Shown here: positions 1 through 40,244 of the stretch, one piece after another
Layout: each line of letters opens with the position of its first letter
How positions within the stretch are numbered: position 1 is the first letter of the stretch
NCBI RefSeq assembly: GCF_000143415.4
Contig: NW_003314262.1
Location: 1,991,046-2,055,045, forward strand
DNA: 64,000 nt
Direction: 5' to 3'
Source of the DNA: Selaginella moellendorffii
Taxonomy: Eukaryota; Plantae; Lycopodiophyta
Translations under genes and position numbers: made by a program
Notes under the pieces: generated by a model
Databases searched by the model: none
The model's input: only the letters and a program-made list of their open reading frames with translations
Told to the model about the DNA's origin: nothing

Positions 1-2480
1 GATTGGCCTTGTCGAACGAAGCTAGGAAGTCACTCCAGTCCCACTCTGCTGCAGGACCAATAACAAGGGCGAGTGTGAAGATGCGGACATTCGTTGGTAT
101 CTTCTTCTTAGCCATTATCCCATGGATCTCCCGCATCTCCTTGCCTTTCAACCGAGCCTTCACCTCGTTCAAGGCCTTCTAGAACTTGTGATAGGATTCG
201 GAGTCGTAGATCATACAGTGGACTGAAGATTCCACCTCTGCAAGTCCCACCATTAAGTTAATGATGGAGCTGACTTCGTTTGCATGAGTGATCTCCTCGT
301 TTGTGAAGTACATCACACAAAAGATGTTCTTGACCTGCTCATCTCCGCAGGAAACGATGCTCCTCCACCTTTGATCCTCATCCGAATTCAAGTATACCCG
401 GTAAGGTTCTCGATAGGCCTCTGCTGCGGGGTCGAGCTGTTTCTGAAGCTGGCGGTCGACATCACTCTTAATGAAATTTGGATACTGATCCAACTTCTCA
501 GCTTTACTTTTCGTGGCATCCCGCAGCAGATCGATGAACTTGGGGGCCCCCTTCACGTACTCGTCGATGTCTTCATTTGACAAATCCAGCGCTTCCATCA
601 TCTCTTGCATGGTGTCGATGCTCACCCTCTCCACGGCCACTTGCTCGAAGATCCAATCCTTCAATAGCGCACGAGCTCTCAGAGTCGTGCACAAGTCCTC
701 GTATGTCACAATATGGCCGGGAGTCATTTTGGTCTTGTTGAAGACTACCTCACCACGTAGAAGAGCATTAGCCACTATCAGAAGGTCGTTGTCGTCTAGA
801 GACCGCGAGAAACGCAAGGCGTTGAGCTTCAAATCATTGGGCTTCCGGCCGTCCTCCACACCCATTGAGTTTGGCAACTCCCCGTCATGGTACCTCCTCA
901 GCACATCTACCCATTTGTCATAAACAACTTTTGTCGCGAGTAGAATGTTATGGATGCTGAGTGTGTCATTGACCCCCAGTGTTTTTGAGAGAAGACTCGA
1001 GAATTCCTACAATGGAAATGGCGTGAGGCCACATGCTATGCCACATGCAACGAGGCTTACCTGCCAGGCGCTAGTTGCTAGTGCACGTCCTTGTCCTGGT
1101 TTTTGTGGCTTCTTCAGTTGAACCCAGAGCTTCCGTGTTCGTCCCAATGTCTTGTGCAGACCCGATTTGTAACACATTTCTTGCTTGACATTCTGCGTGT
1201 GGGAGATGTATATGATAGATCGGAGGGGCGAGTTGCCTTTTATCAGGCGGACAACTCTTGTCTTGAAGACTTTCTTCACCTCCTCACCCACCATAATATC
1301 CACAACTATCTCTTGCATCGCCAAGCTAGAATGCTGCCCGGAGACGGCATAGAACCGGATGTTCTGATCGTCCAACACCTTCCTATTGATCAAGTCTGGA
1401 AACCTCGTCTCGCCCTTCATTGTTCGGTAGTAGGGGATCACGTCTGCGATGTCGGGTGTTACTGGACTTGCCAGCATCTTCTGCTTCAGTTTCTCCACCC
1501 ACTCATCAGATACTAGCCTGTGGTTGTATTTGCTTTGGATGTCGATACGGCTCACGTCGATTGTATATACTTTGTTGGAATAGTAACAAGTACTATTATC
1601 TGTGACGATTTTTGCTGCCTCTTCTTGCTCTTTCTGCTCTTTGCGGCTCTTCTTTTTGGTGGGTGTAGTGTTCGAACCCGAGGCAATGGCATCACCGAGT
1701 AGCTTCTTTTTTGGAGGAGAGTCGGACGTCGGCTTGAGTTTGACCACCCTTTTCTGCTTCGGGGTAGTTTCCAGATTGACCCCCTTCCCCTTCGCTTCGC
1801 GAACTGGAGGCACTCTCAACGGCTCAATGTTGGAATATAGTTTTTGAACATCGCCGTAGGTGAGGTCTGTGGATTCCATGTGATCTTCATAGACCCGCAG
1901 CGTCTTTGAAATTGTGGGCTTCCTGGAAAACCTCTCCCTAGCTTCCTCTAGGAATTCCTCATAGCCGCTGCCCCCCTCCTAGAAGCCGCTAGGATGTGCA
2001 AGGTGGATCTTGAAGGCAGACGCTGTCTCTACCACAAGTGCCAGTCCATATTCTTGCATGGAACTGCATGGAGTGTCTATCACTTGGATGAGGATCCCCA
2101 TGCATTCTTTTCTCCCACCATCTGTGTTGTACAACCTCAGATCCTCGCCTTCCATCCCGAAAGTCCAACTGGTGAGCTCCTCCCCCTTCTCTGCATCCAC
2201 ATTAACAGTGGCTGGAAGAAGAACACAATTCCTCGCCTGTTCAGAAATGCACAACAATTAGAGCTGACAGATGAAAAGCTAGCAGTTGGAAATAACGTGA
2301 GGCCACACGCTATTCACCACTGCATCAGATGTCTTGAGGCTGCATCCTAAGATGGCGTGAGGCTACACGCCATCTGTAACCGGACTGCACTCGAGAGCCC
2401 AATCGGTGCATGCCAATGTTGCTACTGAATGGCATGTGGCCTCATGCCATTTTCTATTTGGCCTAAAAGACTTACCATTT
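1..2480 (-). pseudogene. Cargo gene of copy 1 (ParB-like + methyltransferase-like), 5' part, disrupted
   Basis: ORFs 1979-2257, 1007-1879 and 179-904 match the copy-2 cargo protein. TCG>TAG at 1979-1981 and TGG>TAG at 179-181 truncate it. Confidence 0.85.
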
Positions 2481-3677
2481 GAAGCCGAATGGAGGCGTGA
2501 CAACCGAACTCGCTAGCAAATGTGCACTGTGTGTGCAGCGGATCGTAGCAGCAAGGCTACTCTGCCACTTACAGTTGGAGAGTGGCGCTGAAATCTCCCA
2601 GGACGCCAAGTGGGCTGCGTGTGGGTGGCGGAGTGGGTGGCAGAGTTGGCGGCGAAGTTACAAATTGGGTGTGTCTTGAAGTGGACGCCGATGCACACGA
2701 GCGCGATGCGAGCGCGAGTGGACGCCGATGCACACGAGAAACCTGTAGAGAAGTGGGAGTGCGAGTGGGAGCGCGATGCGAGCGCGAGTACGAAGCAAAA
2801 TGCAAAACCTAACCTCACACGCGCGAAATGTCACGACGGTTGGTAATCCTGCCACGTCATCATTCCTCGGACTTGGGCGCCACCATTAATTTCTGGATCG
2901 CCGCGCGCATGCGTGAAATCCAAAAGAAATCCGCAACGTCATCATTCCTCGGACTGCATGCACGCGAAATCCAAAAGAAAGATCATGATTGGGATATCAT
3001 TTAATACCCTCGCTATATTTATACCATGCATGATTGGATATTCCAAAGCATTTTGTATTTCCAAAAATGCCAGATATTCAGCTAAATAAATTGTCAGAGG
3101 ATTTGATGTGACGTTCAAGCGTGTGGGCTCATGCAATTTTGATCCCAAAAAATGCTCGGCGTCATCTGGCGTTATCTCTTGAATGGCGTGGGGCCGCATG
3201 CCATTTTCAGGAGCACATAGGAGTATATTCCTAGAATATTCTAACACGCGCGAGATTGTTTTGAGTTTCCTGGAGATCCAACCGTTAGATCGCAACTAGA
3301 TTTTACAGAATGGTATACAATATCCTTCTTGATGACCCTGCAAAGAAGCATCTCGATCGGACACCACATGAGACCACACGAGCCTTACAATGTTTCAAGG
3401 GCATTTGCCATAGATCCGACCGTTATTTTGCTCCAAGATTCTACAGTTTGGTGTGCATTGACCTTTCCATCGACACTGCAAAGGGACATCACAATCAAAT
3501 GCGGGATCACAAGAAACCAACTTCACTAACTTTGGTTTCACCAAGATCTACGTAAGGAGTTATAAAATTAAAGGACCCTTTCTATTGAAATGTGTTTATG
3601 GTCTTAGGGGCATTGTGACATATCAAAGGATTTTGCATCAAGTTCTGTATTTGCATGTTTATCAAGCTACTGAATTG

Positions 3678-3702
3678 CTAAACCCTAAACCCTAACCCTA
3701 AA
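3678..3702 (-). repeat. Short plant telomere-type repeat (CCCTAAA)n / telo-box cluster inside the transposon intergenic region
   Basis: ctaaaccctaaaccctaaccctaaa; same tract at 32916-32947 and 33793-33818 in copy 2. Confidence 0.85.
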
Positions 3703-4988
3703 CATGTGGCAAATGCTGCGTGAAGAAAGATGCCCTTTCTGGGCAAATGCTGTAAGAGGCAAATGCCGAGCAGATGTATCTCAGGCTAGCGAAGGGGACA
3801 AACGAAAGCTAGCTATAAACATGATGGGATGCAAATAGATTACTAGGCTGGTCCTGCGAAAATCAAAAACCATAATTGAAAACATTGAAAATGCAAAAAG
3901 AAAGGTTTATAATATTTTTGAATTTTAAGCAACCAAAGGAATGTAAGTAGGGCATGTGTTTGTAAGTTTAAAAATGCCTCAACCACTTAAATTCCCAAGT
4001 AAATAAAGCTGTTTCTATTTTTGGTACAGGTAAACTTTATAGCGTGTAGGCTCATGCAATTTTGAACCCAAAAATGCACCAAAAAATGCTCAACTAGCAT
4101 TATTCTTTGAATGGCGTGTGGCCTTATATTGCCATAAATGGACGTACACACACAGCATAATTATTCCTTTACACGGCGAATAATCTTGGCGCGGATCGCT
4201 GACATGGCATGGCAAAGTTCGAATCACTGACATAGCACAGCTAGATCGAGGCAAGGACATGATGTGACAAAGTTCAACCTCCGATAGCAAAGTCTAGAAG
4301 CTACTCAGTTTGAAATTTGTCAGAGGAATCATAAGATCTGGTTTGTCAGAGGATTTGATGTGACGTTCAAGCGTGTGTTATTTTTGAATTCTCGAACTCA
4401 TTCCTAGGTCTATCATTTTTGTGCGCCATGTTCTTGGTTCCGCTGAGCGCAGTGAGCGCTGCTTGTGTAAGCGGCGTTGTGAGCTGTGGTTTATGCGTCT
4501 ACAAGCGGCTGCGACATTGCGAGCGCCATTGCAAGCGGCAGTTTATGCGAGTGGCAGTTTGTGCGAGCGGCGCTACGAGCAGTTGCGGTATTGCGAGCGG
4601 CGCTACGAGTAGTTGCGGTGTTGCAAGCGGCACTGTCTTTGGTGTGGCTACCATTTCCTCTTGATATTCGGCACTTGTGCTTCTTGGTATGTTCACCATG
4701 GAATGGTTTAGGACCACATTTAGAAATGGCATGAGGCCACATGCCATCTTGGGCCCTTGCAATTTCATGGCTAGCGTATTGTCATGTATGTTTTTACTTG
4801 CCTGCAGCTGTGTGTATATCAAGATGGCATGAGGCTTCATGCCAATTTTGTGAATGCGAAATTTCACGTGGGTGTCAATAGCATGTTTGAATAATGGCAT
4901 GTGGCCTCATGCTATTTGGTATGTTATGATTTAGGCCATTCTCCAATCATTTTTTGTATGGTCTTAACTTCTTTTTTGCACTTTCAGA

Positions 4989-7900
4989 ATAGCCTTCAGG
5001 GTTGGGGAAAAGGTTTACATTTTGAATGGTGGGAAGAGAGTTGCAAAAGGGACCCTTGTGTCTATGGATCGGAACTTTGTNNNNNNNNNNNNNNNNNNNN
5101 NNNNNNNNNNNNNNNNNNNNNNNNNNNNNNNNNNNNNNNNNNNNNNNNNNNNNNNNNNNNNNNNNNNNNNNNNNNNNNNNNNNNNNNNNNNNNNNNNNNN
5201 NNNNNNNNNNNNNNNNNNNNNNNNNNNNNNNNNNNNNNNNNNNNNNNNNNNNNNNNNNNNNNNNNNNNNNNNNNNNNNNNNNNNNNNNNNNNNNNNNNNN
5301 NNNNNNNNNNNNNNNNNNNNNNNNNNNNNNNNNNNNNNNNNNNNNNNNNNNNNNNNNNNNNATCCAAGAGATGCGGTTGCTAATCAAGAATTGGGCTGGG
5401 ATGATATTGGAGTTGCGATTTTAGAGGTTGTTGACACAGAAGAAAACAGTCTGACTATTGGAAGCATTGTGCGGTGGAAATTGAGGCATTTAGTGTTTGA
5501 GAATGTGAAGGATTCACAATCAAACACCACTACAACTGATGACAGAACATCTCTTCATGGGAAAAGAAAGTACACCTTCCTACAGTGCAGCCAAAGGGAT
5601 CTGAGCAACGAACTGAAAAGGCAGAAAATGGCGATGGAGGTTCGAATGGTCTCGACAGTTGCTTGTTGCAAGAGGAGGTGCTATCAACATGCTGATTGGG
5701 ATGCTATTGAAGAGGAGAGAGCAAGATATAAGACATTGTCCTGGAAGGCAGCTCTCAATTTTGTGTATGAGGCATTACGGTCATCTGTTGATGCTTTAGA
5801 ACATCAGGTGGGGGGCATGGTCTTCCAGAGGGGTTTGGTCTGCATGAAGGTATGGAGAATCATTTATGGAGTCCCTCGAAGCACATTCTACAGAATCAAA
5901 ATTGAGTTCAAGGAACAAAGGGTTCAACAGGCAGTCCATGGGAACGACGGTACGCACAAAACCAGGGGTCATGTTGTATATGGAGAGGCAATCTTCAAGA
6001 GGTTTGTCGAGACATGTAGTGAGTAGCAACCACATAAAACCCGCCTCTTGGAAGATGGAACACGAGACACCCAACGAGTTCTCCCTTCCATGTATACCAA
6101 GGGGGCCATATTGGAAGATGTGAATCGGGAACTCTAGAGTAATGGCTACAGGAAGCTGAGCCAATCTAGATTTAGTAGATTGTGGAGCAACAGGTTCAGA
6201 GATGTGAGTATAGGAAAGTACTCCAGCTTTTCAAAGTGTGACGAGTGCACTGCTATCAAAATGGCTTTGTCAAAGAATTCTTGCAGCGCTCAAGAGCGAG
6301 AGACGTTGGTTAGAAGGCTGCTCGACCACAACATCGAGCAGAGAAGCTGCAGGACTGCATATTATTATAACAGAATTCTCTCCATGGAGAGACCTGACTC
6401 TTACCTCTGCATCATCCACGACAAAATGGACCAGAAAAAGACGTGCTTACCTCGACTCAATCCTGCCCCCAAGGCAATCTCTTCATCCATGCAACTACCT
6501 GTGTCTCTGTTTGGCATAATCGCTCATGGGCATGGTGCCCAGAACTATGGGAACTTCTTTGTACCTCTATGGGGTGGCGAGGGTGCAAACATGATGATTG
6601 CGTCCCTAGCAAAACACTTAAGGTCTCTGCAAAGTGCGCAGACTGAGCTGAACGGCCAACCCTTGCATAAGGCCCTTGTCGATCGAACCCCATACAGGGT
6701 TCAGTTGGAGGAGGAGCAAAGGCTTGCAGTATCGCGTGGGGCCCCATGCCATCCCAGTGAATATGTTGGCCGTCAGATTGTAGGGTTATCACGTGAGGCC
6801 TTATGCCATTCCGACGAGGCTGGTCGCCCGATGAATGCACAGCCTCATCCAAACGAAGCAGAATCTCAAGGAAGTTCTTGCGGCCAATGTGGCCTTCCAC
6901 CCCATCTTCTGCTCCAAACAGACAATGCTGGTAGTGAGAACAAAAACATGTACGTCTTCGCGTACTTGGCGATGCTTGTTGCCAAAGGCATATTTGAAAC
7001 GGTTACACTTGGCTTTCTCATGGTTGGGCACACTCATGAAGACGTCGATGCCATGTTCAGTCACCTGGCAGAGTCCCTCCGGCGATCCAATGTCCTCACC
7101 CTCCCACAACTCTACGATGAATTCTAAAATTGCATCAAAGGCACTGTTGAAGCTGCACTTGTGACAGAGGTTCCAGACTTTAAGGGGTTTGTAAGAGGCT
7201 ACATCAGGGACGGATCCGAAACGCTGATTGGCCACTCCAAGCCTCTTCAGTTTCATTTCAGCATGCGTGACGGTGCTCCAGTGATGAGGTACAAGATGAG
7301 AGAATGGGACACAGTGTGGCTGCTAGTGGATGGCATTGAACTCTTCCAGAGAGATCCCATAACTGAGGAACCTATGATTCCTCAGGGTTCCCCACGGCCG
7401 ATGCACCCGGATGGACTCAAAGACCAGGAAAGTATAGTGGCCGGGATTAGACAGCATATTGCTTTCTGGAAGAGGGGGTTGGTGTTTGGTGAAGAATCCT
7501 ATTTTAAGAGGTGCAAGCCTTTGCTCGAATACTGGGAGAAGATTATATCTGCTATCCAAAATGGGCCGGTTGTATATGAAGAATTGGAAGAGTCCTTTTG
7601 GCCAGAACCCAGAGCACCAGATAGTAGCGGAACAATGTCCTCTGGAAATGCAGTGACAGATAACGATGTTGAGGATCACTATTGTGGGCCGAGGAACAAG
7701 AAGCCGGATTCAGCATTCAATCCAGTACAGGTCTGCAAAGGAATGGTCATGCTTGTCAGACCCAGTAATAAAAAACAAATGATATGGGTGGGGCGCTGCA
7801 TCACTGATGCAGAGGAAGACGCAGAAACTAACTCCTTCAATGTAACTGTGGAGTGGTTCAAGCCAAGTTCCGGATATACGAAGGATTGCCTAGAAAAGAG

Positions 7901-8057
7901 ATGGGTGCTGAATCCAAGGGATCCCAACATGAACATATCGGTGGATAATGTTGTGCATGGTTGGATGCGGAAGCAGAGTGCCACTATCACCTTGCCAGAC
8001 CATGCAAGAGATGCAGCAAGAGCATTCATAACCCGGGTTCAAGGTGAGATTCATTAA
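4989..8057 (+). pseudogene. Sola-like transposase, disrupted
   Basis: Collinear with 28354-31422. Start ATG>ATA (4989-4991) and stops at 6024-6026, 6135-6137 and 7125-7127. N gap at 5081-5360. Confidence 0.9.
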
Positions 8058-8856
8058 TATTCCTTTACTAAGTTTCTAATGTATTTTATTTCAAGGTGAA
8101 CAATCCGAATCTGAATCAGAGGAGGCGTGATGGCATGGCGTGATGGCATGAGGCGTGAGGCGTGACACCAAAAAGAAGGTGTCCACTAGCGCTTAGGCTT
8201 ATAATGGCGTGTGCCCTCATGCCATTTACTTGATCACCAAATACCTTTTTCCCTTTGCACTAGTATATCTTAATACCGGTCTGAGAAATAGAATGGCATG
8301 TGCCCTCAGGCCTTTTACTAAATCACCTTTGAAAGAAATGCAAGCCTCTATGTCGTAAAAAAAAGGTACTAGAGAAATTCCTTAATAATATGAATGTTAT
8401 TTAGTTTCATGAAAATACACTAAGGGTCAAATGAGTTAAATGACTTCTCCAGACTAGCAATGCCTCTTGCTACACCTTCACAATTAGATTCGTTAGAAAA
8501 AGATAACATTGAATAATATCTAAATGTTCTCACCATTAAGTTATATGTCTGGTTAATAGGAATGACGTTCATCTTGGAAAGCTCACCACACGCTCAATGA
8601 ACAAACAAATAGTGTGTGCGCGCATGCCATCGCTCTTCTTTAGCTTCAGATTCGGCTTGTTCACTTTGACAATGAGATTTATTATACAACCAGATGGACT
8701 CAGTCTGGACACAAAGTCACTGCGCTAGTCACCATGCCCCAGATATGTCTAGCCCCTGGACAAAAAACATATAATTTCACGTCATTTTCAAATACTTGAA
8801 AATTTGTACCTAGTCCCATTTTACTGAATAAATCCCACTTTAACGAAATAGAGTTT

Positions 8857-24313: not shown

Positions 24314-24365
<52 letters not shown>

Positions 24366-27300: not shown

Positions 27301-27665
27301 GTAGCACAACGGGCTTAGAGTTTAGCTCCATTGGTGATCAAGGCATTTTAATTTTTATATTATATCCGTATGATCATGAGCAATGTGTTTATAAAGTTAG
27401 TTGGTCAAATAACAATTAACACCAAAGTGGTTGATGATAGTCTACTTACAAGTAGTAGCATTGTATAAGCTTTAACTATATTCTCAAAAGTGATCTATTA
27501 TATTAAGTTGGTGAGAGTACCTTATTTCCTTAAGAGTTTGCCTATTGAGGTTTTGGAAAAATTATAACATTCGTTTACTATAGCTTGTTAGTGGATCTAT
27601 TATCATTTGGAGTAAATTTTTAAATGAAAAAAGTGTGCATTGGTATTGCTAGCATTTGTGTTAGT

Positions 27666-27689
27666 AAGCTCTATTTCGTTAAAGTGGGA
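27666..27689 (+). repeat. Left terminal inverted repeat
   Basis: Exact reverse complement of 40217-40240. Confidence 0.95.
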
Positions 27690-28353
27690 TTTATTCAGTA
27701 AAATGGGACTAGGTACAAATTTTCAAGTATTTGAAAATGACGTGAAATTATATGTTTTTTGTCCAGGGGCTAGTCATATCTGGGGCATGGTGACTAGCGC
27801 GGTGACTTTGTGTCCAGACTGAGTCCATCTGGTTGTATAATAAATCTCATTGTCAAGGTGAACAAGCCGAATCTGAAGCTAAAGAAGAGCGATGGCATGC
27901 GCGCACACACTATTTGTTTGTTCATTGAGCGTGTGGTGAGCTTTCCAAGATGAACGTCATTCCTATTAGCCAGACATATAACTTAATGGTGAGAACATTT
28001 AGATATTATTCAATGTTATCTTTTTCTAACAAATCTAATTGTGAAGGTGTAGCAAGAGGCATTGCTAGTCTGGAGAAGTCATTTAACTCATTTGACCCTT
28101 AGTGTATTTTCATGAAACTAAATAACATTCATATTATTAAGGAATTTCTCTAGTACCTTTTTTTTACGACATAGAGGCTTGCATTTCTTTCAAAGGTGAT
28201 TTAGTAAAAGGCCTGAGGGCACATGCCATTCTATTTCTCAGACCGGTATTAAGATATACTAGTGCAAAGGGCCACATGCCATCACGCCTCCTCTGATTCA
28301 GATTCGGATTGTTCACCTTGAAATAAAATACATTAGAAACTTATAAAAAAATA

Positions 28354-31300
28354 TTAATGAATCTCACCTTGAACCCGGGTTATGAATGCTCTTGCTGCAT
28401 CTCTTGCATGGTCTGGCAAGGTGATGGTGGCACTCTGCTTCCGCATCCAACCATGCACAACATTATCCACCGATATGCTCATGCTGGGATCCCTTGGATT
28501 CAGCACCCATCTCTTTTCTAGGCAATCCTTCGTATATCCGGAACTTGGCTTGAACCACTCCACAGTTACATTGAAGGAGTTAGTTTCCGCGTCCTCCTCT
28601 GCATCAGTGATGCAACGCCCCACCCATATCATTTGTTTTTTATTACTGGGTCTGACAAGCACGACCATTCCTTTGCAGACTTGTACTGGATTGAATGCTG
28701 AATCCGGCTTCTTGTTCCTCGGCCCACAATAGTGATCCTCAACATCGTTATCTGTCACTGCATTTCCAGAGGACATTGTTCCGCTACTATCTGGTGCTCT
28801 GGGTTCTGGCCAAAAGGACTCTTCCAATTCTTCATATACAACCGGCCCATTTTGGATAGCAGATATAATCTTCTCCCAGTATTCGAGCAAAGGCTTGCAC
28901 CTCTTAAAATAGGATTCTCCACCAAACACCAACCCCCTCTTCCAGAAGGCAATATGCTGTCTAATCCCGGCCACTATACTTTCCTGGTCTTTGAGTCCAT
29001 CCGGGTGCATCGGCCGTGGGGAACCCTGAGGAATCATAGGTTCCCCAGTTATGGGATCTCTTTTGAAGAGTTCAATGCCGTCCACTGGCAGCCACACTGT
29101 GTCCCATTCTCTCATCTTGTACCTCATCACTGGAGCACCATCACGCATGCTGAAATGAAACTGAAGAGGCTTGGAGTGGCCAATCAGCGTTTCGGATCCG
29201 TCCCTGATGTAGCCTCTTACAAACCCCTTAAAGTCTGGAACCTCTGTCACAAGTGCAGCTTCAACAGTGCCTTTGATGCAATTTTGGAATTCATCGTAGA
29301 GTTGTGGGAGGGTGAGGGCATTGGATCGCCGGAGGGACTCTGCCAGGTGACTGAACATGGCATCGACGTCTTCATGAGTGTGCCCAACCATGAGAAAGCC
29401 AAGTGTAACCGTTTCAAATATGCCTTTGGCAACAAGCATCGCCAAGTACGCGAAGACGTACATGTTTTTGTTCTCACTGCCAGCATTGTCTGTTTGGAGC
29501 AGAAGATGGGGTGGAAGGCCACATCGGCCGCAAGAACTTCCTTGAGATTCTGCTTCGTTTGGATGAGGCTGTGCATTCACCGGGCGACCAGCCTCGTCAG
29601 AATGGCATGAGGCCTCACGTGATAACCCTACAATCTGACGGCCAACATATTCACTGGGATGGCATGGGGCCCCACGCGATACTGCAAGCCTTTGCTCCTC
29701 CTCCAACTGAACCCTGTATGGGGTTCGATCGACAAGGGCCTTATGCAAGGGTTGGCCGTTCAGCTCAGTCTGCGCACTTTGCAGAGACCTTAAGTGTTTT
29801 GCTAGGGACGCAATCATCATGTTTGCACCCCCGCCACCCCATAGAGGTACAAAGAAGTTCCCATAGTTCTGGGCACCATGCCCATGAGCGATTATGCCAA
29901 ACAGAGACACAGGCAGCTGCATGGATGAAGAGATTGCCTTGGGGGCAGGATTGAGTCGAGGTAAGCACGTCTTTTTCTGGTCCATTTTGTCATGGATGAT
30001 GCAGAGGTAAGAGTCAGGTCTCTCCATGGAGAGAATCTTGTTATGATAATATGCAGTCCTGCAGCTTCTCTGCTCGATGTTGTGGTCGAGCCGCCTTCTA
30101 ACCAACGTCTCTCGCTCTTGAGCGCTGCAAGAATTCTTCGACAAAGCCATTTTGATAGCAGTGCACTCGTCACACTTTGAAAAGCTGGAGTACTTTCCTA
30201 TACTCACATCCCTGAACCTGTTGCTCCACAATCTACTAAATCTAGATTGGCTCAGCTTCCTGTAGCCATTACTCTGGAGTTCCCGATTCACATCTTCCAA
30301 TATGGCCCCCTTGGTATACATGGAAGGGAGAACTTGTTGGGTGTCTCGTGTTCCATCTTCCAAGAGGCGGGTTTTATGTGGTTGCTGCTCGCTACATGTC
30401 TCGACAAACCTCTTGAAGATTGCCTCTCCATATACAACATGACCCCTGGTTTTGTGCGTACCGTCGTTCCCATGGACTGCCTGTTGAACCCTTTGTTCCT
30501 CGAACTCAGTTTTGATTCTGTAGAATGTGGTTCGAGGGACTCCATAAATGATTCTCCATGCCTTCATGCAGACCAAACCCCTCTGGAAGACCATGCCCCC
30601 CACCTGATGTTCTGAAGCATCAACAGATGACCGTAATGCCTCATACACAAAATTGCGAGCTGCCTTCCAGGACAATGTCTTGTATCTTGCTCTCTCCTCT
30701 TCAATAGCATCCCAATCAGCATGTTGACAGCACCTCCTCTTGCAACAAGCAACTGTCGAGACCATTCGAACCTCCATCGCCATTTTCTGCCTTTTCGGTT
30801 CGTTGCTCAGATCCCTTTGGCTGCGCTGTAGGAAGGTGTACTTTCTTTTCCCATGAAGAGATGTTCTGTCATCAGTTGTAGTGGTGTTTGATTGTGAATC
30901 CTTCACATTCTCAAACACTAAATGCCTCAATTTCCACCGCACAATGCTTCCAATAGTCAGACTGTTTTCTTCTGTGTCAACAACCTCTAAAATTGCAACT
31001 CCAATATCATCCCAGCCCAATTCTTGATTAGCAACCGCATCTCTTGGATCGACAACTGTGGCTAAGCCCTCAGCTACCACCTCCCCCTCGGGGTTGTTTA
31101 GAAACACCTTTGCCTGAATCCATGTAGCACGGTTCTTAAGATCCACGGAGGGAACATGCGTCGCACTTGCGCTGTCCCCAACATCTGCTTTCTTCTGCAG
31201 ATTTTTCAAGGCAACAACAACATTTACCCCGACGACCATCTCTCCTCGTTCAATAGCGACCACATTCCCATCGAAGACAGTCTCTACTGATACAGCAGCA

Positions 31301-31422
31301 TTGCCTTCCCCAAGCCTTTGACAGTGTATAACAAAGTTCCGATCCATAGACACAAGGGTCCCTTTTGCAACTCTCTTCCCACCATTCAAAATGTAAACCT
31401 TTTCCCCAACCCTGAAGGCCAT
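28354..31422 (-). CDS. Sola-like DDD transposase, 1022 aa (possible extra terminal exon 28282-28316 via intron 28317-28367)
   Basis: Motifs IHDKMDQ, LLQTDNAGSENKN and FLMVGHTHEDVDAMFS (acidic triad with GH..D, Sola-type). Cys/His clusters (CCKRRCC, KCDECT..H). Uninterrupted ORF inside TIRs. Confidence 0.88.
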   Translation of the reverse strand: MAFRVGEKVYILNGGKRVAKGTLVSMDRNFVIHCQRLGEGNAAVSVETVFDGNVVAIERGEMVVGVNVVVALKNLQKKADVGDSASATHVPSVDLKNRATWIQAKVFLNNPEGEVVAEGLATVVDPRDAVANQELGWDDIGVAILEVVDTEENSLTIGSIVRWKLRHLVFENVKDSQSNTTTTDDRTSLHGKRKYTFLQRSQRDLSNEPKRQKMAMEVRMVSTVACCKRRCCQHADWDAIEEERARYKTLSWKAARNFVYEALRSSVDASEHQVGGMVFQRGLVCMKAWRIIYGVPRTTFYRIKTEFEEQRVQQAVHGNDGTHKTRGHVVYGEAIFKRFVETCSEQQPHKTRLLEDGTRDTQQVLPSMYTKGAILEDVNRELQSNGYRKLSQSRFSRLWSNRFRDVSIGKYSSFSKCDECTAIKMALSKNSCSAQERETLVRRRLDHNIEQRSCRTAYYHNKILSMERPDSYLCIIHDKMDQKKTCLPRLNPAPKAISSSMQLPVSLFGIIAHGHGAQNYGNFFVPLWGGGGANMMIASLAKHLRSLQSAQTELNGQPLHKALVDRTPYRVQLEEEQRLAVSRGAPCHPSEYVGRQIVGLSREASCHSDEAGRPVNAQPHPNEAESQGSSCGRCGLPPHLLLQTDNAGSENKNMYVFAYLAMLVAKGIFETVTLGFLMVGHTHEDVDAMFSHLAESLRRSNALTLPQLYDEFQNCIKGTVEAALVTEVPDFKGFVRGYIRDGSETLIGHSKPLQFHFSMRDGAPVMRYKMREWDTVWLPVDGIELFKRDPITGEPMIPQGSPRPMHPDGLKDQESIVAGIRQHIAFWKRGLVFGGESYFKRCKPLLEYWEKIISAIQNGPVVYEELEESFWPEPRAPDSSGTMSSGNAVTDNDVEDHYCGPRNKKPDSAFNPVQVCKGMVVLVRPSNKKQMIWVGRCITDAEEDAETNSFNVTVEWFKPSSGYTKDCLEKRWVLNPRDPSMSISVDNVVHGWMRKQSATITLPDHARDAARAFITRVQGEIH

Positions 31423-31576
31423 TCTGAAAGTGCAGAAAAGAAGTTAAGACCATACAAAAAATGATTGGAGAATGGCCTAAATCATAACATACCAAATAGC
31501 ATGAGGCCACATGCCATTATTCAAACATGCTATTGACACCCACGTGAAATTTCGCATTCACAAAATTGGCATGAGC

Positions 31577-31612
31577 CCTCATGCCATTAGTGGTACCACT
31601 AATGGCATGAGG
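31577..31612. repeat. Perfect 36-bp palindrome bridging two 22-bp motif copies upstream of the transposase
   Basis: CCTCATGCCATTAGTGGT|ACCACTAATGGCATGAGG; checked base by base. Confidence 0.9.
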
Positions 31613-32430
31613 CGTCACGCTATCTTTGGCCCCTGCTAGCCTGTTGCTGCAAGGGCCCAAGATTGTTGCAACTGTATATATTTTTGTGTGCGTGACTAGT
31701 CACCCATACAAAAATATATACAGTTGCAGCAAGGCAAAAGGAATATGGCAATAGGTTAGCAGGGGCCCAAAGATGGTATGAGGCCTCATGCCATCTTGAT
31801 ATACACACAGCTGCAGGCAAGTAAAAACATACATGACAATACGCTAGCCATGAAATTGCAAGGGCCCAAGATGGCATGTGGCCTCATGCCATTTCTAAAT
31901 GTGGTCCTAAACCATTCCATGGTGAACATACCAGGAAGCACAAGTGCCGAATATCAAGAGGAAGCGGTAGCCACACCAAAGACAGTGCCGCTCGCAACAC
32001 CGCAACTTCTCGTAGCGCCGCTCGCAACACCGCAGCTGCTCGTAGCGCCGCTCGCACAAACTGCCACTCGCATAAACTGCCGCTCGCAATGGCGCTCGCA
32101 ATGCCGCAACCGCTTGTAGACGCATAAACCACAGCTCACAACGCCGCTTACACAAGCAGCGCTCACTGCGCTTAGCGGAACCAAGAACACGGCGCACAAA
32201 AATGATAGACCTAGGAATGAGTTCGAGAATTCAAAAATAACACACGCTTGAATGTCACATCAAATCCTCTGACAAACCAGATCTTATGATTCCTCTGACA
32301 AATTTCAAACTGAGTAGCTTCTAGACTTTGCTGTCGGAGGTTGAACTTTGTCACATCATGTCCTTGCCTCGATCCAGCTGTGCCATGTCAGTGATTCGAA
32401 CTTTGCCATGCCATGTCAGCGATCCGCGCC

Positions 32431-34286
32431 AAGATTATTCGCCGTGTAAAGGAATAATTATGCTGTGTGTGTACGTCCATTTATGGCAATATAAGGCCAC
32501 ATGCCATTCAAAGAATAATGCTAGTCGAACATCTTTTGGTGCATTTTTGGGTTCAAAATTGCATGAGCCCACACGCTATAAAGTTTACCTGTACCAAAAA
32601 TAGAAACAGCTTTATTTACTTGGGAATTTAAGTGGTTGAGGCATTTTTAAACTTACAAACACATGCCCTACTTACATTCCTTTGGTTGCTTAAAATTCAA
32701 AAATATTATAAACCTTTCTTTTTGCATTTTCAATGTTTTCAATTATGGTTTTTGATTTTCGCAGGACCAGCCTAGTAATTTATTTGCATCCCATCATGTT
32801 TATAGCTAGCTTTCGTTTGTCCCCTTCGCTAGCCTGAGATACATCTGCTCGGCATCTGCCTCTTACAGCATTTGCCCAGAAAGGGCATCTTTCTTCACGC
32901 AGCATTTGCCACATGTTTAGGGTTAGGGTTTAGGGTTTAGGGTTTAGCAATTCAGTAGCTTGATAAACATGCAAATACAGAACTTGATGCAAAATCCTTT
33001 GATATGTCACAATGCCCTTAGGACCATAAACACATTTCAATAGAGAGGGTCCTTTCATTTCATAACTCCTTACGTAGATCTTGGTGAAACCAGAGTTAGT
33101 GAAGTTGGTTTCTTGTGATTCCGCATCTGATTGTGATGTCCCTTTGCAGTGTCGATGGAAAGGTCAATGCACACCAAACTGTAGAATCTTGGAGCAAAAT
33201 AACGGTCGGATCTATGGCAAATGCCCCTGAAACATTGTAAGGCTCGTGTGGTCTCATGTGGTGTCCGATCGAGATGCTTCTTTGCAGAGTCATCAAGAAG
33301 GACATTGTATACCATTCTATAAAATCTGGTTGCGATCTAACGGTTGGATCTCCAGGAAACTCAAAACAATCTCGCGCGTGTCAGAATATTCTAGGAATAT
33401 ACTCCTATGTGCTCCAAGATTATTCGCCGTGTAAAGGAATAATTATGCTGTGTCATTTATGGCAATATAAGGCCACACGCCATTCAAAGAATAATGCTAG
33501 TTGAGCATTTTTTGGTGCATTTTTGGGTTCAAAATTGCATGAGCCCACACGCTATAAAGTTTACCTGTACCAAAAATAGAAACACCTTTATTTACTTGGG
33601 AATTTAAGTGGTTGAGGCATTTTTAAACTTACAAACACATGCCCTACTTACATTCCTTTGGTTGCTTACATTCCTTCGGTTGCTAGCTTTCGTTTGTCCC
33701 CTTCACTAGCCTGAGATACATCTGCTCGACATCTGCCTCTTACAGCATTTGCCCAGAAAGGGCATCTTTCTTCACGCAACATTTGCCACATGTTTAGGGT
33801 TTAGGGTTTAGGGTTTAGCAATTCAGTAGCTTGATAAACATGCAAATACAGAACTTGATGCAAAATCCTTGGATATGTCACAATGCCCCTAGGACCATAA
33901 ACACATTTCAATAGAGAGGGTCCTTTCATTTCATAACTCCTTACGTAGATCTTGGTGAAACCAGAGTTAGTGAAGTTGGTTTCTTGTGATCCCGCATTTG
34001 ATTGTGATGTCCCTTTGCAGTGTCGATGGAAAGGTCAATGCACACCAAACTGTAGAATCTTGGAGCAAAATAACGGTCGGATCTATGGCAAATGCCCCTG
34101 AAACATTGTAAGGCTCGTGTGGTCTCATGTGGTGTCCGATCGAGATGCTTCTTTGCAGAGTCATCAAGAAGGACATTGTATACCATTCTGTAAAATCTGG
34201 TTGCGATCTAACGGTTGGATCTCCAGGAAACTCAAAACAATCTCGCGCGTGTCAGAATATTCTAGGAATATACTCCTATGTGCTCC
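32431..34286 (+). repeat. Tandem duplication within the transposon intergenic region (32431-33415 / 33416-34286)
   Basis: Two near-identical units, each with a telomere-type tract, joined at a CC microhomology. Copy 1 has a single unit (~3213-4190). Confidence 0.88.
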
Positions 34287-34539
34287 TGAAAATGGCATGC
34301 GGCCCCACGCCATTCAAGAGATAACGCCAGATGACGCCGAGCATTTTTTGGTGCATTTTTTGGGATCAAAATTGCATGAGCCCACATGCTTGAACGTCAT
34401 CCTCTGACAATTTATTTAGCTGAACATCTGGCATTTTTGGAAATACAAGATGCTTTGGAATATCCAATCATGCATGGTATAAATATAGCGAGGGTATTAA
34501 ATGATATCCCAATCATGATCTTTCTTTTGGATTTCGCGT

Positions 34540-35040
34540 GCATGTAGTCCGAGGAATGATGACGTTGCGGATTTCTTTTGGATTTCACGCATGCGCGCGC
34601 CGATCCAGAAATTAATGGTGGCGCCCAAGTCCGAGAAATGATGACGTGGCGGGATTACCAACCGTCGTGACATTTCGCGCGTGTGAGGTTAGGTTTTGCA
34701 TTTTGCTTCGTACTCGCGCTCGCACACTCGCGCTCGCATCGCGCTCCCACTTCTCTACAGGTTTCTCGTGTGCATCGGCGTCCACTCGCGCTTGCATCAC
34801 ACTCGCGCTCGCATCGCGCTCGTGTGCATTGGCGTCCACTTCAAGACACACCCAGTTTGTAACTTCGCCGCCAACTCCGCCGCCCACTCCGCCACCCACA
34901 CGCAGCCCACTTGGCGTCCCGGGAGATTTCAGCGCCACTCTCCAACTGTAAGTGGTAGAGTAGCCTTGCTGCTACGATCTGCTGCACACACAGTGCACAT
35001 TCGCCAGCGAGTCCGGTTGTCACGCCTCCATTCGGCTTCA
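34540..35040 (+). promoter_or_regulatory. CpG-rich putative promoter / 5' UTR of the cargo gene
   Basis: Direct repeats AGTCCGAGRAATGATGACGT (34546-34565, 34628-34647) with TGACG cores and CGCGCTCGCA repeats, followed by ATG|GTAAGT at 35042-35050. Confidence 0.45.
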
Positions 35041-35283
35041 AATGGTAAGTCTTTTAGGCCAAGTAGAAAATGGCATGAGGCCACATGCCATTCAGTAGCA
35101 ACATTGGCATGCACCGATTAGGCTCTCGAGTGCAGTCCGGTTACAGATGGCGTGTAGCCTCACGCCATCTTAGGATGCAGCCTCAAGACATCTGATGCAG
35201 TGGTGAATGGCGTGTGGCCTCACGTTATTTCCAGCTACTAGCTTTTCATCTGTCAGCTCTAATTGTTGTGCATTTCTGAACAG

Positions 35284-38200
35284 GCGAGGAATTGCGTTCT
35301 TCTTCTAGCCACTGTCAATGTGGATGTAGAGAAGGGGGAGGAGCTCACCAGTTGGACTTTCGGGATGGAAGGCGAGGATCTGAGGCTGTACAACACAGAT
35401 GGTGGGAGAAAAGAATGCATGGGGATCCTCATCCAAGTGACAGACACTCCATGCAGTTCCATGCAAGAATATGGACTGGCACTTGTGGTAGAGACAGCGT
35501 CTGCCTTCAAGATCCACCTTGCACATCGTAGCGGCTTCTCGGAGGGGGGCAGCGGCTATGAGGAATTCCTAGAGGGAGCTAGGGAGAGGTTGTCCAGGAG
35601 GCCCACAATTTCAAAGACGCTGCGGGTCTATGAAGATCACATGGAATCCACGGACCTCACCTACGGCGATGTTCAAAAACTATATTCCAACATTGAGCCG
35701 TTGAGAGTGACTCCAGTTCGCGAAGCAAAGGGGAAGGGGGTCGATCTGGAAACTACCTCGAAGCAGAAAAGGGTGGTCAAGCTCAAGCCGACGTCTGACT
35801 CTCCTGCTCCAAAAAAGAAGCTACTCAGTGATGCCATTGCCTCGGGTTCGAACACTACACCCACCAAAAAGAAGAGCCGCAAAGAGCAGAAAGAGCAAGA
35901 AGAGGCAGCAAAAATCGTCGCAGATAATAGTACTTATTACTATTCCAACAAAGTATATACAATCGACGTGAGCCGTATCGACATCCAAAGCAAATACAAC
36001 CACAGGCTAGTATCTGATGAGTGGGTGGAGAAATTGAAGCAGAAGATGCTGGCAAGTCCAGTAACACCCGACATTGTAGACGTGATCCCCTACTACCAAA
36101 AAATGAAGGGCGAGATGAGGTTTCCAGACTTGATCAATAGGAAGGTGTTGGACGATCAGAACATCCGGTTCTATGCCGTCTCCGGGCAGCATTCTAGCTT
36201 GGCGATGCAAGAGATAGTTGTGGATATTATGGTGGGCGAGGAGGTGAAGAAAGTCTTCAAGACAAGAGTTGTCCGCCTGATAAAAGGCAACTCGCCCCTC
36301 CGATCTATCATATACATCTCCCACACGCAGAATGTCAAGCAAGAAATGTGTTACAAATCGGGTCTGCACAAGACATTGGGACGAACACGGAAGCTCTGGG
36401 TTCAACTGAAGAAGCCACAAAAACCAGGACAAGGACGTGCACTAGCAACTAGCGCCTGGCAGGTAAGCCTCGTTGCATGTGGCATAGCATGTGGCCTCAC
36501 GCCATTTCCATTGTAGGAATTCTCGAGTCTTCTCTCAAAAACACTGGGGGTCAATGACACACTCAGCATCCATAACATTCTACTCGCGACAAAAGTTGTT
36601 TATGACAAATGGGTAGATGTGCTGAGGAGGTACCATGACGGGGAGTTGCCAAACTCAATGGGTGTGGAGGACGGCCGGAAGCCCAATGATTTGAAGCTCA
36701 ACGCCTTGCGTTTCTCGCGGTCTCTAGACGACGACGACCTTCTGACAGTGGCTAATGCTCTTCTACGTGGTGAGGTTGTCTTCAACAAGACCAAAATGAC
36801 TCCCGGCCATATTGTGACATACGAGGACTTGTGCACGACTCTGAGAGCTCGTGCGCTATTGAAGGATTGGATCTTCGAGCAAGTGGCCGTGGAGAGGGTG
36901 AGCATCGACACCACGCAAGAGATGATGGAAGCGCTGGAGTTGTCAAATGAAGACATCGACGAGTACGTGAAGGGGGCCCCCAAGTTCATCGATCTGCTGC
37001 GAGATGCCACGAAAAGTAAAGCTGAGAAGTTGGATCAGTATCCAAATTTCATTAAGATTGATGTCGACCGCCGGCTTCAGAAACAGCTCGACCCCGCAGC
37101 AGAGGCCTATCGAGAACCTTACCGGGTATACTTGAATTCGGATGAGGATCAAAGGTGGAGGAGCATCGTTTCCCGCGGAGATGAGCAGGTCAAGAACATC
37201 TTTTGTGTGATGGACTTCACAAACGAGGAGATCACTCATGCAGACGAAGTCAGCTCCATCATTGACTTAATGGTGGGACTTGCGGAGGTGGAATCTTCAG
37301 TCCACTATATGATCTACGACTCCGAATCCTATCACAAGTTTTGGAAGGCCTTGAACGAGGTGAAGGCTCGGTTGAAAGGCAAGGAGATGCGGGAGATCCA
37401 TGGGATAATGGCTAAGAAGAAGATACCGACGAATGTCCGCATCTTCACACTCGCCCTTGTTATTGGTCCTGCAGCAGAGTGGGACTGGAGTGACTTCCCA
37501 GCTTCGTTCGACAAGGCCAATCGAATTGATCTGAGGGAGGTCAATTTACCCGTGCCTGAGGAACTGAAGACGGCTATGGAGCTTTCGAATCCAAAGAAAG
37601 CTCCAGGTGCAGCATGGGAAATGCTCAGCTGGGTCTTCAACGCAATAGCGGGTGGGTCACCTGCTTCCGACTCCAAGGGCAAATGCGTTATCGAGTACAA
37701 CAGCGGCGGACTATTCTTTCGAGCCGCACTACTCAAGGGTGTCCCGTGTGTTGCGGTGACAAACTCCATTGAAGAGGGGACTTCAATGGAGCATATAATT
37801 ACAGTTGCCAAAGAAAAACAGTATCTTCTCTGCGAACCTGGTGAGTACGCACTTTAAGTTTAAATGTTATCTCACAAGCTCTGTATGCAGGAGCGTGGCC
37901 ACCCCCAGATGCTGAAACGGCGTTAACAGCTACTGTTGAAGATACTCATGTTGGGCCGAGCTCACAACCTGCACAAGGTAAGGTCACGTGAGGCCTCACG
38001 CCATTTTGATTATAGATCGTTGTGAATATTCAGACACGAGGACTGAAAAGCGCACTGGTGGCGCATCGAAGAAGGACAAACAGAAAAGCAATAGGAAAAA
38101 AGGAGGTACAAATTATATTTGCAATGGCGTGTGGTCTCATGCCATTCCTTGCAGGAGAAACTTCTTCAAAGGCAAAACAGGCAAGCACCAGCCAAGCTCA

Positions 38201-39869
38201 AACTGACAGTGGTCATAAAAAGCGAAAGCACGTTGGACAGTCGTCGAGATCAGAGGCGTTTGATTCGAAAAGGAAGAAGGGCAACGAAAAGATGATAGGT
38301 AATGCCTCGCGGTTATGGCGTGTGTGCTCATGCCATTCATTGCAGATCAAGGGCTGAGTGAAAGCAGGCAGTCACCACCTCATGACTCAGATTCCTATGG
38401 CGGACTCCCCTTCCCCAATCTCAATGGAGAGGTACAATGGATGAGGGAAGCTTTTCAAGGCAGGGCCACGTTTTTCTCATCTCGTCGTCTTCGAAGGGTG
38501 CAAGAACGTGCAGAAACCATGTTAAGACAGTCGGGTGAGGATACGGTCCTAGGTCACGCACTAAAACAGGCTATGGATGTCTTGTATTTTGAGATGGAGA
38601 CTCGGCCAGATGATTTTCCCAAGATGGTCCTGGAAGAACAAGCCATCCAGCCTGAGCAGCCTATGGAAGAAATGCAGGAGGGGGATGAGGAGCCAGAGAA
38701 AGATAATGAGCAGGAAGAGCAGAAGGACGAAGAGGAGGACAAAGAAGAGGAGGACGAAGAAGAGGAGGACGAAGAGGACTTGGATGGTCCTCACAATGGT
38801 GACGATCACAATAACAACGACGACGATGATGACGACGATGGCCAGCCTGAGGTGGCCAAAGAGCGGCGGAGGAAGGTCATACAAGACAAACCATCAGGTA
38901 AATAATAATACATCCATTCCTAACCTTTTACCATTTCTAACATTGTCCATGTAGGTCGCAGAGCAAATGGTAAGTAGAGATTATTCAGTTGAATTTACAA
39001 ACTCTAGCCTTTAGTGTCGAGGAAGGATAGTGCCAAGCAAGGGTCGAAACGTATGTCCAATCCTTCAGAATCAACAGTGCGCTCAAGTGATATCGGTCCT
39101 AGTTCCTCAATAGCAGTTGATGGTAAATACAGTATAGTCGATTCAATGTGCTAATAAGTTTGTTTTTAGTAGCACGAGAGGATACCATCTCAATCGAAGG
39201 GAGATATTTGGACATGCATATGGATCCGCCAGTGGACTCTACTTGGCTGCAAGAGTCATCAGAGCTGGTGGAGGCTACTATCCATATCAACGCCAAGCAA
39301 GCTGACCACGCTCCACTTGATGCTGCCCATACCACTGAGTCAATCTTGTCCACGTATCCAACTGACGGTGACCAGGCGCCATTGGACCCACATGAGGCCG
39401 CCCCAGCCGCCGAGCCGGTCGTATCCTCATTTCCAACGGACTCAACGTGTGCCCAATCGTCTGACTACGCGCCGTTGGAACCTCCCTACACCGCCCCTGC
39501 TACCTGTTCGGTCATGTCCACTTTGCCAACGGAGGCACCAGCTGAAATGGCGTGTGATCACACGCCATCGGAACCACCCCATGCCACTGTTGAGCCAGTT
39601 GTACCAGAGTCTACAGCTGAAATGGCATGTGCCCACACGCCATCGGATGCGATTGACCCCACATTGCAGAGGAGAGTATTTCCGCCCTTCACGTTTCCTC
39701 GACCAAAACCCTCTCAACGACCATCGGGAGCAACATTCGCTAATATTGTAGATGGTAAAATTGACTTGTACCATTTTTTATGCTGACGCATTTCATTTCA
39801 GAGTCATGGCGAAGGTACTGTATCGTTTTTGATCTGAACGGTGTCCTTTTCTCCCATGAGCGTGGCTGA
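35284..39869 (+). CDS. Multi-exon cargo protein: ParB/Srx-like domain + degenerate beta-class N4/N6 DNA-methyltransferase-like domain + disordered acidic/Pro-rich tail + truncated HAD(NIF/FCP1-like) motif
   Basis: One reading frame is kept across GT-AG introns 36463-36516, 37841-37890, 37978-38033, 38106-38154, 38299-38345, 38898-38954, 38970-39014, 39123-39169 and 39754-39801, to TGA 39867-39869. 5' exons (from ~35042) are unresolved. Domain calls from motifs IDVSRI..YNHRLV..WVEKL..FYAVSGQHS, NPKK..MLSWVF..KCVIEYNSGGLFFRAALLKGVPCVAV and CIVFDLNGVL. Confidence 0.75.
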
Positions 39870-40216
39870 ACGGTGTCCTTTGAGAGGATTTGCATTATAC
39901 TAGAAGTGTTACAGCATGTTATTGGAAGTCTACGAAGTTGTTTTATTAATAATGGGAAAGTAAAGATTGAATGGGGACTTGGGCTCCACCTAGACTCGGA
40001 GCAACTGAGCCAATATTAAAAGGATGGAAAGAAATTGGACGACGATGACAAGGAGAAGAGAGAGGTGAAGCAGTGGCAGGGGGAGGAGAAGTGATTGAGT
40101 AGACATTTCCTTGTTTAAAATAAAATGGCATGTGCCTCAATGCAGTTGAATTTTGTTATATTTATATACTATATAAAGGTTTGGAAACCTTATTTTACAA
40201 GTGGGATAATGACAAT

Positions 40217-40240
40217 TCCCACTTTAACGAAATAGAGCTT
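40217..40240 (-). repeat. Right terminal inverted repeat
   Basis: TCCCACTTTAACGAAATAGAGCTT followed by TSD TAGT. Confidence 0.95.
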
Positions 40241-40244
40241 TAGT

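Follow-up and report, generated by a model that had tools for sequence, protein, structure and literature searches.

What reads a palindrome that is repeated along the whole of a DNA transposon, and to what effect? The question is raised by a 12,575-bp element (27666..40240, called copy B) in a 64,000-nucleotide stretch of Selaginella moellendorffii DNA (NCBI RefSeq assembly GCF_000143415.4, contig NW_003314262.1, positions 1,991,046 to 2,055,045 of the forward strand). This whole stretch is referred to as the window, and coordinates are positions within it. The element contains a transposase gene on the minus strand (gene 1) and a second, predicted gene on the plus strand (gene 2). In our judgement, some protein encoded by the element itself very probably binds the palindromes. 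The more specific proposal has about an even chance of being right: that the predicted ParB-fold protein of gene 2 docks on the palindromes as a dimer, in a manner like that of VANC (the motif-binding protein encoded by Arabidopsis VANDAL transposons), and regulates or de-silences its own family.

A preliminary description made from the sequence alone had reported a 22-bp palindrome repeated across the element, and this was borne out: 20 copies with at most three mismatches were found in 27666-40240, and copy B holds about 25 when degenerate ones are included. Across the window there were 32 matches at this threshold, compared to none in each of 100 dinucleotide shuffles. All 32 were located inside two copies of the element, 20 in copy B and 12 in copy A, an inverted copy at 1..8856 that is cut by the window start. 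Copy A was not mentioned in the preliminary description, and its sites demonstrate that the motif is kept in another member of the family. At up to five mismatches the motif was found 38 times inside the element copies and not once outside (21,150 vs. 42,469 bases), and exact half-sites numbered 53 vs. 2 in the same bases. The palindrome, which contains CATG and GGCC cores, is unrelated in sequence to the terminal inverted repeat (TIR) of the element, and it is not restricted to the subterminal regions, since the widest gap between sites with at most three mismatches is 1,837 nt; both points had been proposed. Eighteen of the 19 starts previously listed as near-consensus were exact, with 0-3 mismatches, but the copy at 40125 is a half-site with six. 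The seven copies listed as degenerate do exist, but six of their starts were 1-9 nt off (they lie at 27892, 28261, 32486, 32558, 33462, 33534 and 34371), and those at 32558 and 33534 have just three mismatches each. Three trivial origins of the copies were considered and rejected: chance, an inserted mini-element of the miniature inverted-repeat transposable element type (site flanks are not shared) and an assembly artefact (against which stand the second copy and public runs).

The sites are concentrated in non-coding DNA. Sixteen of the 20 sites with at most three mismatches lie in the non-coding 43% of the element (p=8e-4), and in gene 2 seven of nine are intronic, while introns make up 14% of the gene (p=3e-5); both tests depend on the predicted gene model. 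Five sites lie in the predicted 5' untranslated region intron of the transposase gene (31424..31931, minus strand, GT/AG signals), at 31496..31517 (1 mismatch), 31566..31587 (2), 31602..31623 (2), 31773..31794 (1) and 31871..31892 (0). The space between the genes holds 32558..32579 (3 mismatches), its duplicate 33534..33555 (3), 34292..34313 (2), the degenerate 34371..34392 (5) and the half-sites 32486..32507 and 33462..33483 (6 each), the latter within an internal duplication of about 1 kb. Gene 2 carries three sites in intron 1 (35070..35091, 35147..35168 and 35207..35228, with 0, 1 and 2 mismatches) and one each in introns 2 (36484..36505, 1 mismatch), 4 (37983..38004, 3), 5 (38124..38145, 1) and 6 (38315..38336, 2). 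Four sites are coding: two (29602..29623 and 29659..29680, 2 and 3 mismatches) in a variable, poorly conserved linker of the transposase (residues 580-607), and two (39547..39568 and 39622..39643, 2 and 1 mismatches) in the low-complexity exon 10 of gene 2. A further site (28208..28229, 3 mismatches) is downstream of the transposase, a half-site (28261..28282, 5) is at a deletion junction, and a degenerate copy (27892..27913, 5) and a half-site (40125..40146, 6) lie near the left and right ends respectively.

The 30-nt flanks of the sites are unrelated (median 9/30 identical positions, 190 pairs), so most copies did not come as parts of some larger repeat. Local duplication accounts for three or four site pairs, for example 32558/33534, 31566/31602 and 39547/39622. 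These pairs, and the polymorphism of a 207-nt segment that holds sites, are what might be expected if the palindromes were neutral by-products of local duplication. We hold this explanation, and equally the binding of the sites by a host transcription factor, to be very improbable, as most flanks are unrelated and the 42 kb outside the copies hold just two half-sites; moreover, each related group of elements has a different palindrome (see below), which a conserved host factor would not predict.

The preliminary description left open whether the palindrome is a dimeric protein site or a hairpin. Covariation of the arms across the 20 sites favoured a fixed protein site: among 17 arm pairs with a non-consensus letter, none was compensated. 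Positions 6 and 17 combine freely (A·T 5, A·C 8, G·T 2, G·C 4; Fisher p=1), T7:A16 and G8:C15 never vary, and W9:W14 can pair in just 8 of the 20 sites. The arms had been described as conserved around a variable centre, and here the variability was overstated, as every site has the same 6-nt spacing and 18 of the 20 retain G10:C13, although its letters cannot pair in a hairpin. Because of this fixed spacing and the conserved symmetric centre, the pattern fits a dimeric protein on double-stranded DNA and not a hairpin, as far as sequence can tell. The R/Y variation of the motif sits at CpG/CpA positions and may be due to deamination.

Nine of the ten predicted introns of gene 2 are 45-57 nt long. 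In introns 2, 5 and 6 the CTCAY of the motif is the sole YTNAY located 8-45 nt from the acceptor (CTCAC with its A at -17 in intron 2, CTCAT with its A at -15 in introns 5 and 6). The motif-free short introns have a branch-point candidate at -14 to -17 in five of five cases. Intron 4 is off the pattern, with the A of its motif at -35. Three of the sites therefore seem to double as branch points. Contigs from the public run X20, guessed to be an RNA run, pass through the predicted introns and spacers; X20 may thus be DNA and is uninformative on splicing.

This placement would also suit a hairpin in the RNA of short introns that masks their branch point and gates the splicing of element transcripts, the more so as introns 5 and 6 fold into an 8-bp stem (-14.5 and -16.2 kcal/mol, values without a shuffle control). 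Within genes, G·U makes up five of the seven 6/17 pairs that are non-Watson-Crick, read on the sense strand, a share that slightly favours an RNA hairpin. We nevertheless judge this explanation improbable, given that none of the 17 arm changes is compensatory, that an unpairable centre is conserved at a fixed 6-nt spacing, that the full stem does not form in introns 2 and 4, and that many sites lie between genes or at a distance from splice sites. A search of 27600-40300 against Rfam gave no match at the gathering score.

A protein bound to double-stranded DNA is thus the preferred reading of the sites, and gene 2 offers a candidate for it, one that the preliminary description does not name. 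The predicted gene (35042..39867, plus strand) has 11 exons, 10 GT-AG introns and 1378 stop-free codons up to a deletion point. Exon 2 encodes a domain (35926..36462) with eight homologues at E≤1e-3 among 1.84 billion representatives, and an invariant G-Q-H in nine of nine aligned sequences. Its AlphaFold model, based on a 15-sequence alignment, reached a predicted local distance difference test score (pLDDT) of 76. In Foldseek the model matched best to a Noc-DNA complex (E 7.6e-5), followed by ParB, Srx, PadC and KorB; all of the 27 rows listed are ParB/Noc/KorB/Srx-type or ParB-like proteins (some of which we take to be ParB-like), save one unnamed Pyrococcus protein. VIA-align gave a Z of 9.6 with PadC (root-mean-square deviation 3.1, 100 aligned) and of 9.0 with KorB (2.7, 94 aligned). 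The exon-2 domain is therefore predicted to have a ParB/Srx fold. Searches of sequences in the Protein Data Bank (PDB) with exons 2 and 3 and alignment A4 gave nothing useful, and word-based homologue searches of the ParB region gave no match with length windows that were unfavourable.

The remainder of gene 2 was interpreted mainly through P0043, a member of a Riccia cluster (the closest named source of homologues was Riccia sorocarpa). P0043 has, in order, a ParB-like part, an N6_N4_Mtase match (E 5.8e-4, under the cut-off) and a NIF match (E 1.9e-5), and it aligns weakly with exon 3 in two segments (E 1e-4 and 8e-4). In the Atlas, the nearest neighbours of its ParB-like part are fungal DUF3723 clusters (0.95-0.96) and those of its middle part N6_N4_Mtase (0.88-0.90); the two results were counted as one source. 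By this route, an amino-methyltransferase-like region of approximate limits is weakly indicated at 37120..37780 of the window, followed by the start of a NIF/FCP1 phosphatase-like domain at 39802..39867, after which about 880 nt that other copies possess are missing from copy B. The canonical motifs of such methyltransferases include motif IV, [DNS]PP[YFW]. This catalytic motif was not found in the methyltransferase-like domain of gene 2 or of P0043, and the domain of gene 2 is consequently probably dead.

Gene 2 could instead be an active N4-cytosine/N6-adenine methyltransferase with the palindromes as its targets, along the lines suggested for algal elements (PMC12477816). Besides that precedent, the P0043 match, its Atlas neighbours and its weak alignment with M.RsrI (E 0.032) speak for this. 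With [DNS]PP[YFW] absent from both proteins, motif I reading VIEYNSGG in gene 2, and exon 3 giving no direct methyltransferase match in Pfam, PHROG or PDB, we find such an activity quite improbable.

The other candidate binder within the element is the transposase, a 1022-aa open reading frame (ORF; 28354..31422, minus strand) with a DUF7869 match (E 1.8e-42) and HDKMD, DN and GHTHED stretches whose acidic motifs are conserved across 13 aligned proteins. There were 28 proteins at E≤1e-20 among the matches listed, most of them 27-40% identical. We take DUF7869 to represent the Sola class of transposases, of which a 4-bp target site duplication (TSD) is a hallmark. The ends of the element are of this type: a perfect 24-bp TIR (27666..27689, plus; 40217..40240, minus) is flanked by the 4-bp TSD TAGT (27662..27665 and 40241..40244), in agreement with a contig of the empty site. 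From the DUF7869 link, the TIR and the TSD together we call the transposon Sola-like. Subgroups of Sola are treated in PMC4455052 and PMC5751038.

Binding by the transposase would make the palindromes subterminal-type repeats that have spread inward, serving end synapsis or self-activation, and gene 2 a passenger or a gene with another job. The N-terminus of the transposase weakly matches Transposase_23 of Spm/TNP1 (E 0.0024, under the cut-off), and a contig of public run X2 that carries the first ~44 bp of the element runs straight into a variant of the motif (27709). There are precedents: Spm TnpA and the AtMu1 transposase are self-activators with binding and hypomethylation described at the termini, and for AtMu1 the transposase by itself binds motifs and switches on its family (bioRxiv 10.64898/2026.08.24.746577). 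They resemble the system proposed here in having family-specific clustered motifs and an element-encoded binder that de-silences the family, and differ in that the binder is the transposase or derived from it. They also bind at termini, whereas here nine sites are inside gene 2, seven of them intronic, up to 5 kb from the nearest end, and the motif is unrelated to the TIR. We regard the transposase as a possible binder, but a clearly less likely one than the product of gene 2.

Related elements bear on the choice between the two. A metagenome scan for related transposases gave 492 loci, of which the best 80 were analysed. The motif of the window element was absent from all 80 at ≤4 mismatches. 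A de novo search found a palindrome with at least eight copies in 10 of the 80 loci, compared to 0 of 80 shuffles, and with at least five copies in 37 loci vs. 8 shuffles. The same search also scored tandem arrays in the window flanks (23 and 14 copies), and a high copy number alone does not therefore mark a transposon site. The 80 loci form nine nucleotide groups. Four of these (62, 8, 2 and 1 loci) have distinct palindromes without a cross-match, beyond a single hit, to each other or to the window element; a fifth group (L002) has a weaker palindrome. The group motifs were picked from the same loci, so that their own shuffles are favourable, and the 80-locus de novo search is the fair control. 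At least four groups of related plant elements thus appear, from their sequences, to carry each a different private palindrome. Tandem arrays of the private palindrome stand upstream of the transposase at L028:53-349, L006:8500-9450 and L029:61-945, which is nearer to the VANDAL pattern. Pfam searches of 91 ORFs from 16 of the loci gave no ParB or methyltransferase family and one NIF, a phosphatase-like ORF at L016:4423-5040 (minus strand, E 5.2e-6) located about 5 kb upstream of the transposase match and on the other strand. More than 30 copies of a palindrome centred on GTGGCCAC surround this ORF. No convincing ends emerged when TIRs were sought in 38 of the 80 loci, and a viral contig collection contained no relative.

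Several results, in addition to the G·U pairs, weigh against gene 2 as the reader of the palindromes or against a de-silencing role. A ParB-like gene was detected in none of the 80 related loci, many of which do have palindromes; the loci are short or decayed, and the profile used comprised just 15 sequences. In several of the loci the palindromes lie within about 1.5 kb of the transposase match, as transposase sites would (in L028 at -685 to -62 and +70 to +196, in L001 at -1462 to -421); the element ends are not fixed there, so calling that placement 'subterminal' lacks a basis. The matched fold is the nucleotide-binding domain of ParB and not its DNA-reading helix-turn-helix; a helical region is predicted after the fold, in exon 3, where the model has a pLDDT of 40 and is unusable. 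The CTP-binding arginine patch of ParB is GxRRxR, and its position reads GQHS in gene 2. Methylation was approached through sequence composition. The observed/expected ratio of CpG was 0.70 in the element vs. 0.46-0.52 in the flanks, and that of CWG was 1.03 vs. 0.58-0.63; the higher CpG ratio may just reflect the youth of the element. Copies A and B differ at 6-8% of cytosines in CG and CHG contexts and at about 2% of those in CHH, and both copies are mutated like methylated DNA. The differences were as frequent near the sites as far from them (CG 12/192 vs. 36/487; CHG 18/224 vs. 39/471), so no local protection from methylation is visible.

Under the mechanism that we prefer, a two-fold symmetric protein would bind the sites as double-stranded DNA, and this protein would be the product of gene 2 and not the transposase. 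Sites would be gained, and kept, wherever coding constraint permits, and in three introns of about 50 nt they would double as the branch point. The effect of binding would fall on transcription or chromatin, and methyl transfer would probably play no part in it, since the catalytic motif is absent from the methyltransferase-like domain. More speculatively, the NIF phosphatase-like tail might act on polymerase or chromatin proteins.

Comparable designs have been described elsewhere. ParB accessory genes combined with inverted repeats were already proposed for algal transposons in 2025. Sola1-1_Ec32 of Ectocarpus has an accessory gene with ParB-like and N4C/N6A methyltransferase domains, for which self-binding and self-modification were proposed (PMC12477816). 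By description, it shares with the window element a giant structure of Sola or Sola-like type, an accessory gene on the strand opposite to the transposase, and a ParB-like domain; after the latter comes an amino-methyltransferase domain, which in the window element is weakly indicated through P0043. The main text of that paper does not contain 'palindrom', whereas about 25 sites are mapped in the window element, which also differs in its methyltransferase-like part without a catalytic motif, the NIF-like domain after it and a plant-like host. The Plavaka PAG3 protein of Bostrychia is ParB-like at its N-terminus and was proposed to bind inverted repeats that lie within its element (bioRxiv 10.1101/2025.02.11.637652). 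It is likewise a transposon accessory protein with a ParB-like domain in an element with inverted repeats, but it belongs to the EnSpm/Plavaka superfamily, has a 2-oxoglutarate oxygenase effector and is accompanied by tandem arrays beside the gene, while the sites of the window element are single and dispersed in introns, spacers and coding linkers. For chlorophytes and chytrids, ParB-HTH-fused methylases have likewise been reported (PMC4738411).

Bacterial ParB/parS, Noc/NBS and KorB/OB systems share with gene 2 the ParB/Srx fold and several palindromic sites on the same DNA; gene 2 differs in having GQHS in place of the arginine patch and in being a eukaryotic, intron-containing gene. A segregation role is unlikely, and no ParA ATPase family was found in the five ORF stretches scanned, which did not include the deleted segments of the element. 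VANDAL transposons are Mutator-type elements. In Arabidopsis, their VANC motifs are family-specific, lie in non-coding regions including introns and are bound by the element-encoded VANC (PMC5735166, PMC10398659). The palindrome resembles them as a short, family-specific motif that is enriched in non-coding DNA and introns and differs between related families. VANC motifs, in contrast, are 8-9 nt long, have one orientation and form tandem repeats, while no tandem array was found over the sites of the window element, whose flanks are mostly unrelated; and binding and demethylation were demonstrated for VANC, while the binder predicted here would have a ParB fold. According to a 2025 source, no transposon other than VANDAL is known to bind its own sequence and modify it (bioRxiv 10.1101/2025.02.11.637652).

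A literature search, with most subscription journals outside it, found no land-plant report of such a design. The window element adds a sharply defined site, its dispersal over the whole element with an intron bias, the possible double use of sites as branch points, and a candidate reader whose methylase is likely dead and whose tail is phosphatase-like. We tentatively extend the proposal, with clearly less confidence than in the mechanism preferred above and with the odds against it, to Sola-like transposons of land plants in general. These might run a self-recognition of the parS/ParB style, with a private palindrome and a matching ParB-fold reader in each family; the reader, joined in this case to a dead methyltransferase and to a domain of phosphatase-like type, would load along the whole element against host silencing, and with sites co-opted as branch points in the gene for the reader itself, a loop of autoregulation may be closed. 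The algal ParB-type proposals came without a defined site, while the window element gives a precise 22-bp candidate, a candidate reader and relatives with other sites, so that the proposal is directly testable by electrophoretic mobility shift assay, DNA affinity purification sequencing (DAP-seq) and specificity swaps. If it is true, land plants would have an independent system of bacterial origin against silencing, from which orthogonal protein-site pairs could be drawn.

The insertion and its copies were also examined in contigs from public runs. An 818-nt contig of X1 joins 27325-27665 to 40240-40400, i.e. an element-free site; it was taken as one contig on account of equal length and depth at both flanks. 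It differs from the left flank by 15 letters and may represent a paralogous flank rather than an allele. Summed contig depth was about 5-9 x 10^5 inside the element vs. about 190 for the empty-site contig. Such depth is not a copy number, but the host clearly contains a highly repeated family, which may accordingly have shaped its genome size. The X2 contig with the loose end at 27709, in which the first ~44 bp of the element are followed by a palindrome variant, probably comes from a sister element, or a shorter one, that shares the TIR. Copies A and B are ~97-99% identical. Copy A has a transposase with stop codons, an N gap at ~5081-5361 and AAA at its terminus where copy B has AAG, a difference at the third base. 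X2 contigs contain two segments that are missing from copy B, of about 940 nt at 28271 and of about 880 nt at 39867; the second deletion removes most of the NIF-like domain, and gene 2 is therefore truncated in copy B.

The inverted-repeat-rich 207-nt segment at 31571-31777, which includes the site at 31602..31623, splits one motif into two and adds a third. It is polymorphic, not being present in copy A and being skipped by X2 and X13 contigs, and suggests fold-back duplication as one route of site gain. The direct duplication of about 1 kb at ~32420-34290 is specific to copy B and doubles two sites and a short TTTAGGG tract; telomere-like short TTTAGGG arrays of the intergenic spacer lie at 32915-32947 and 33792-33818. 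Like the Riccia homologues, the TTTAGGG repeats fit a land-plant host. Short CG-rich tandem repeats of CGCTCG type (31987-32107 and 34712-34911) precede each of the two divergent genes and are possible promoter or first-exon regions. Finally, the repeats that flank the element contain tandem arrays with a 12-bp period (GTCCGAGATGGA type) on both strands, at 19476-19928, 23900-24438, 46297-46800 and 49497-49738.

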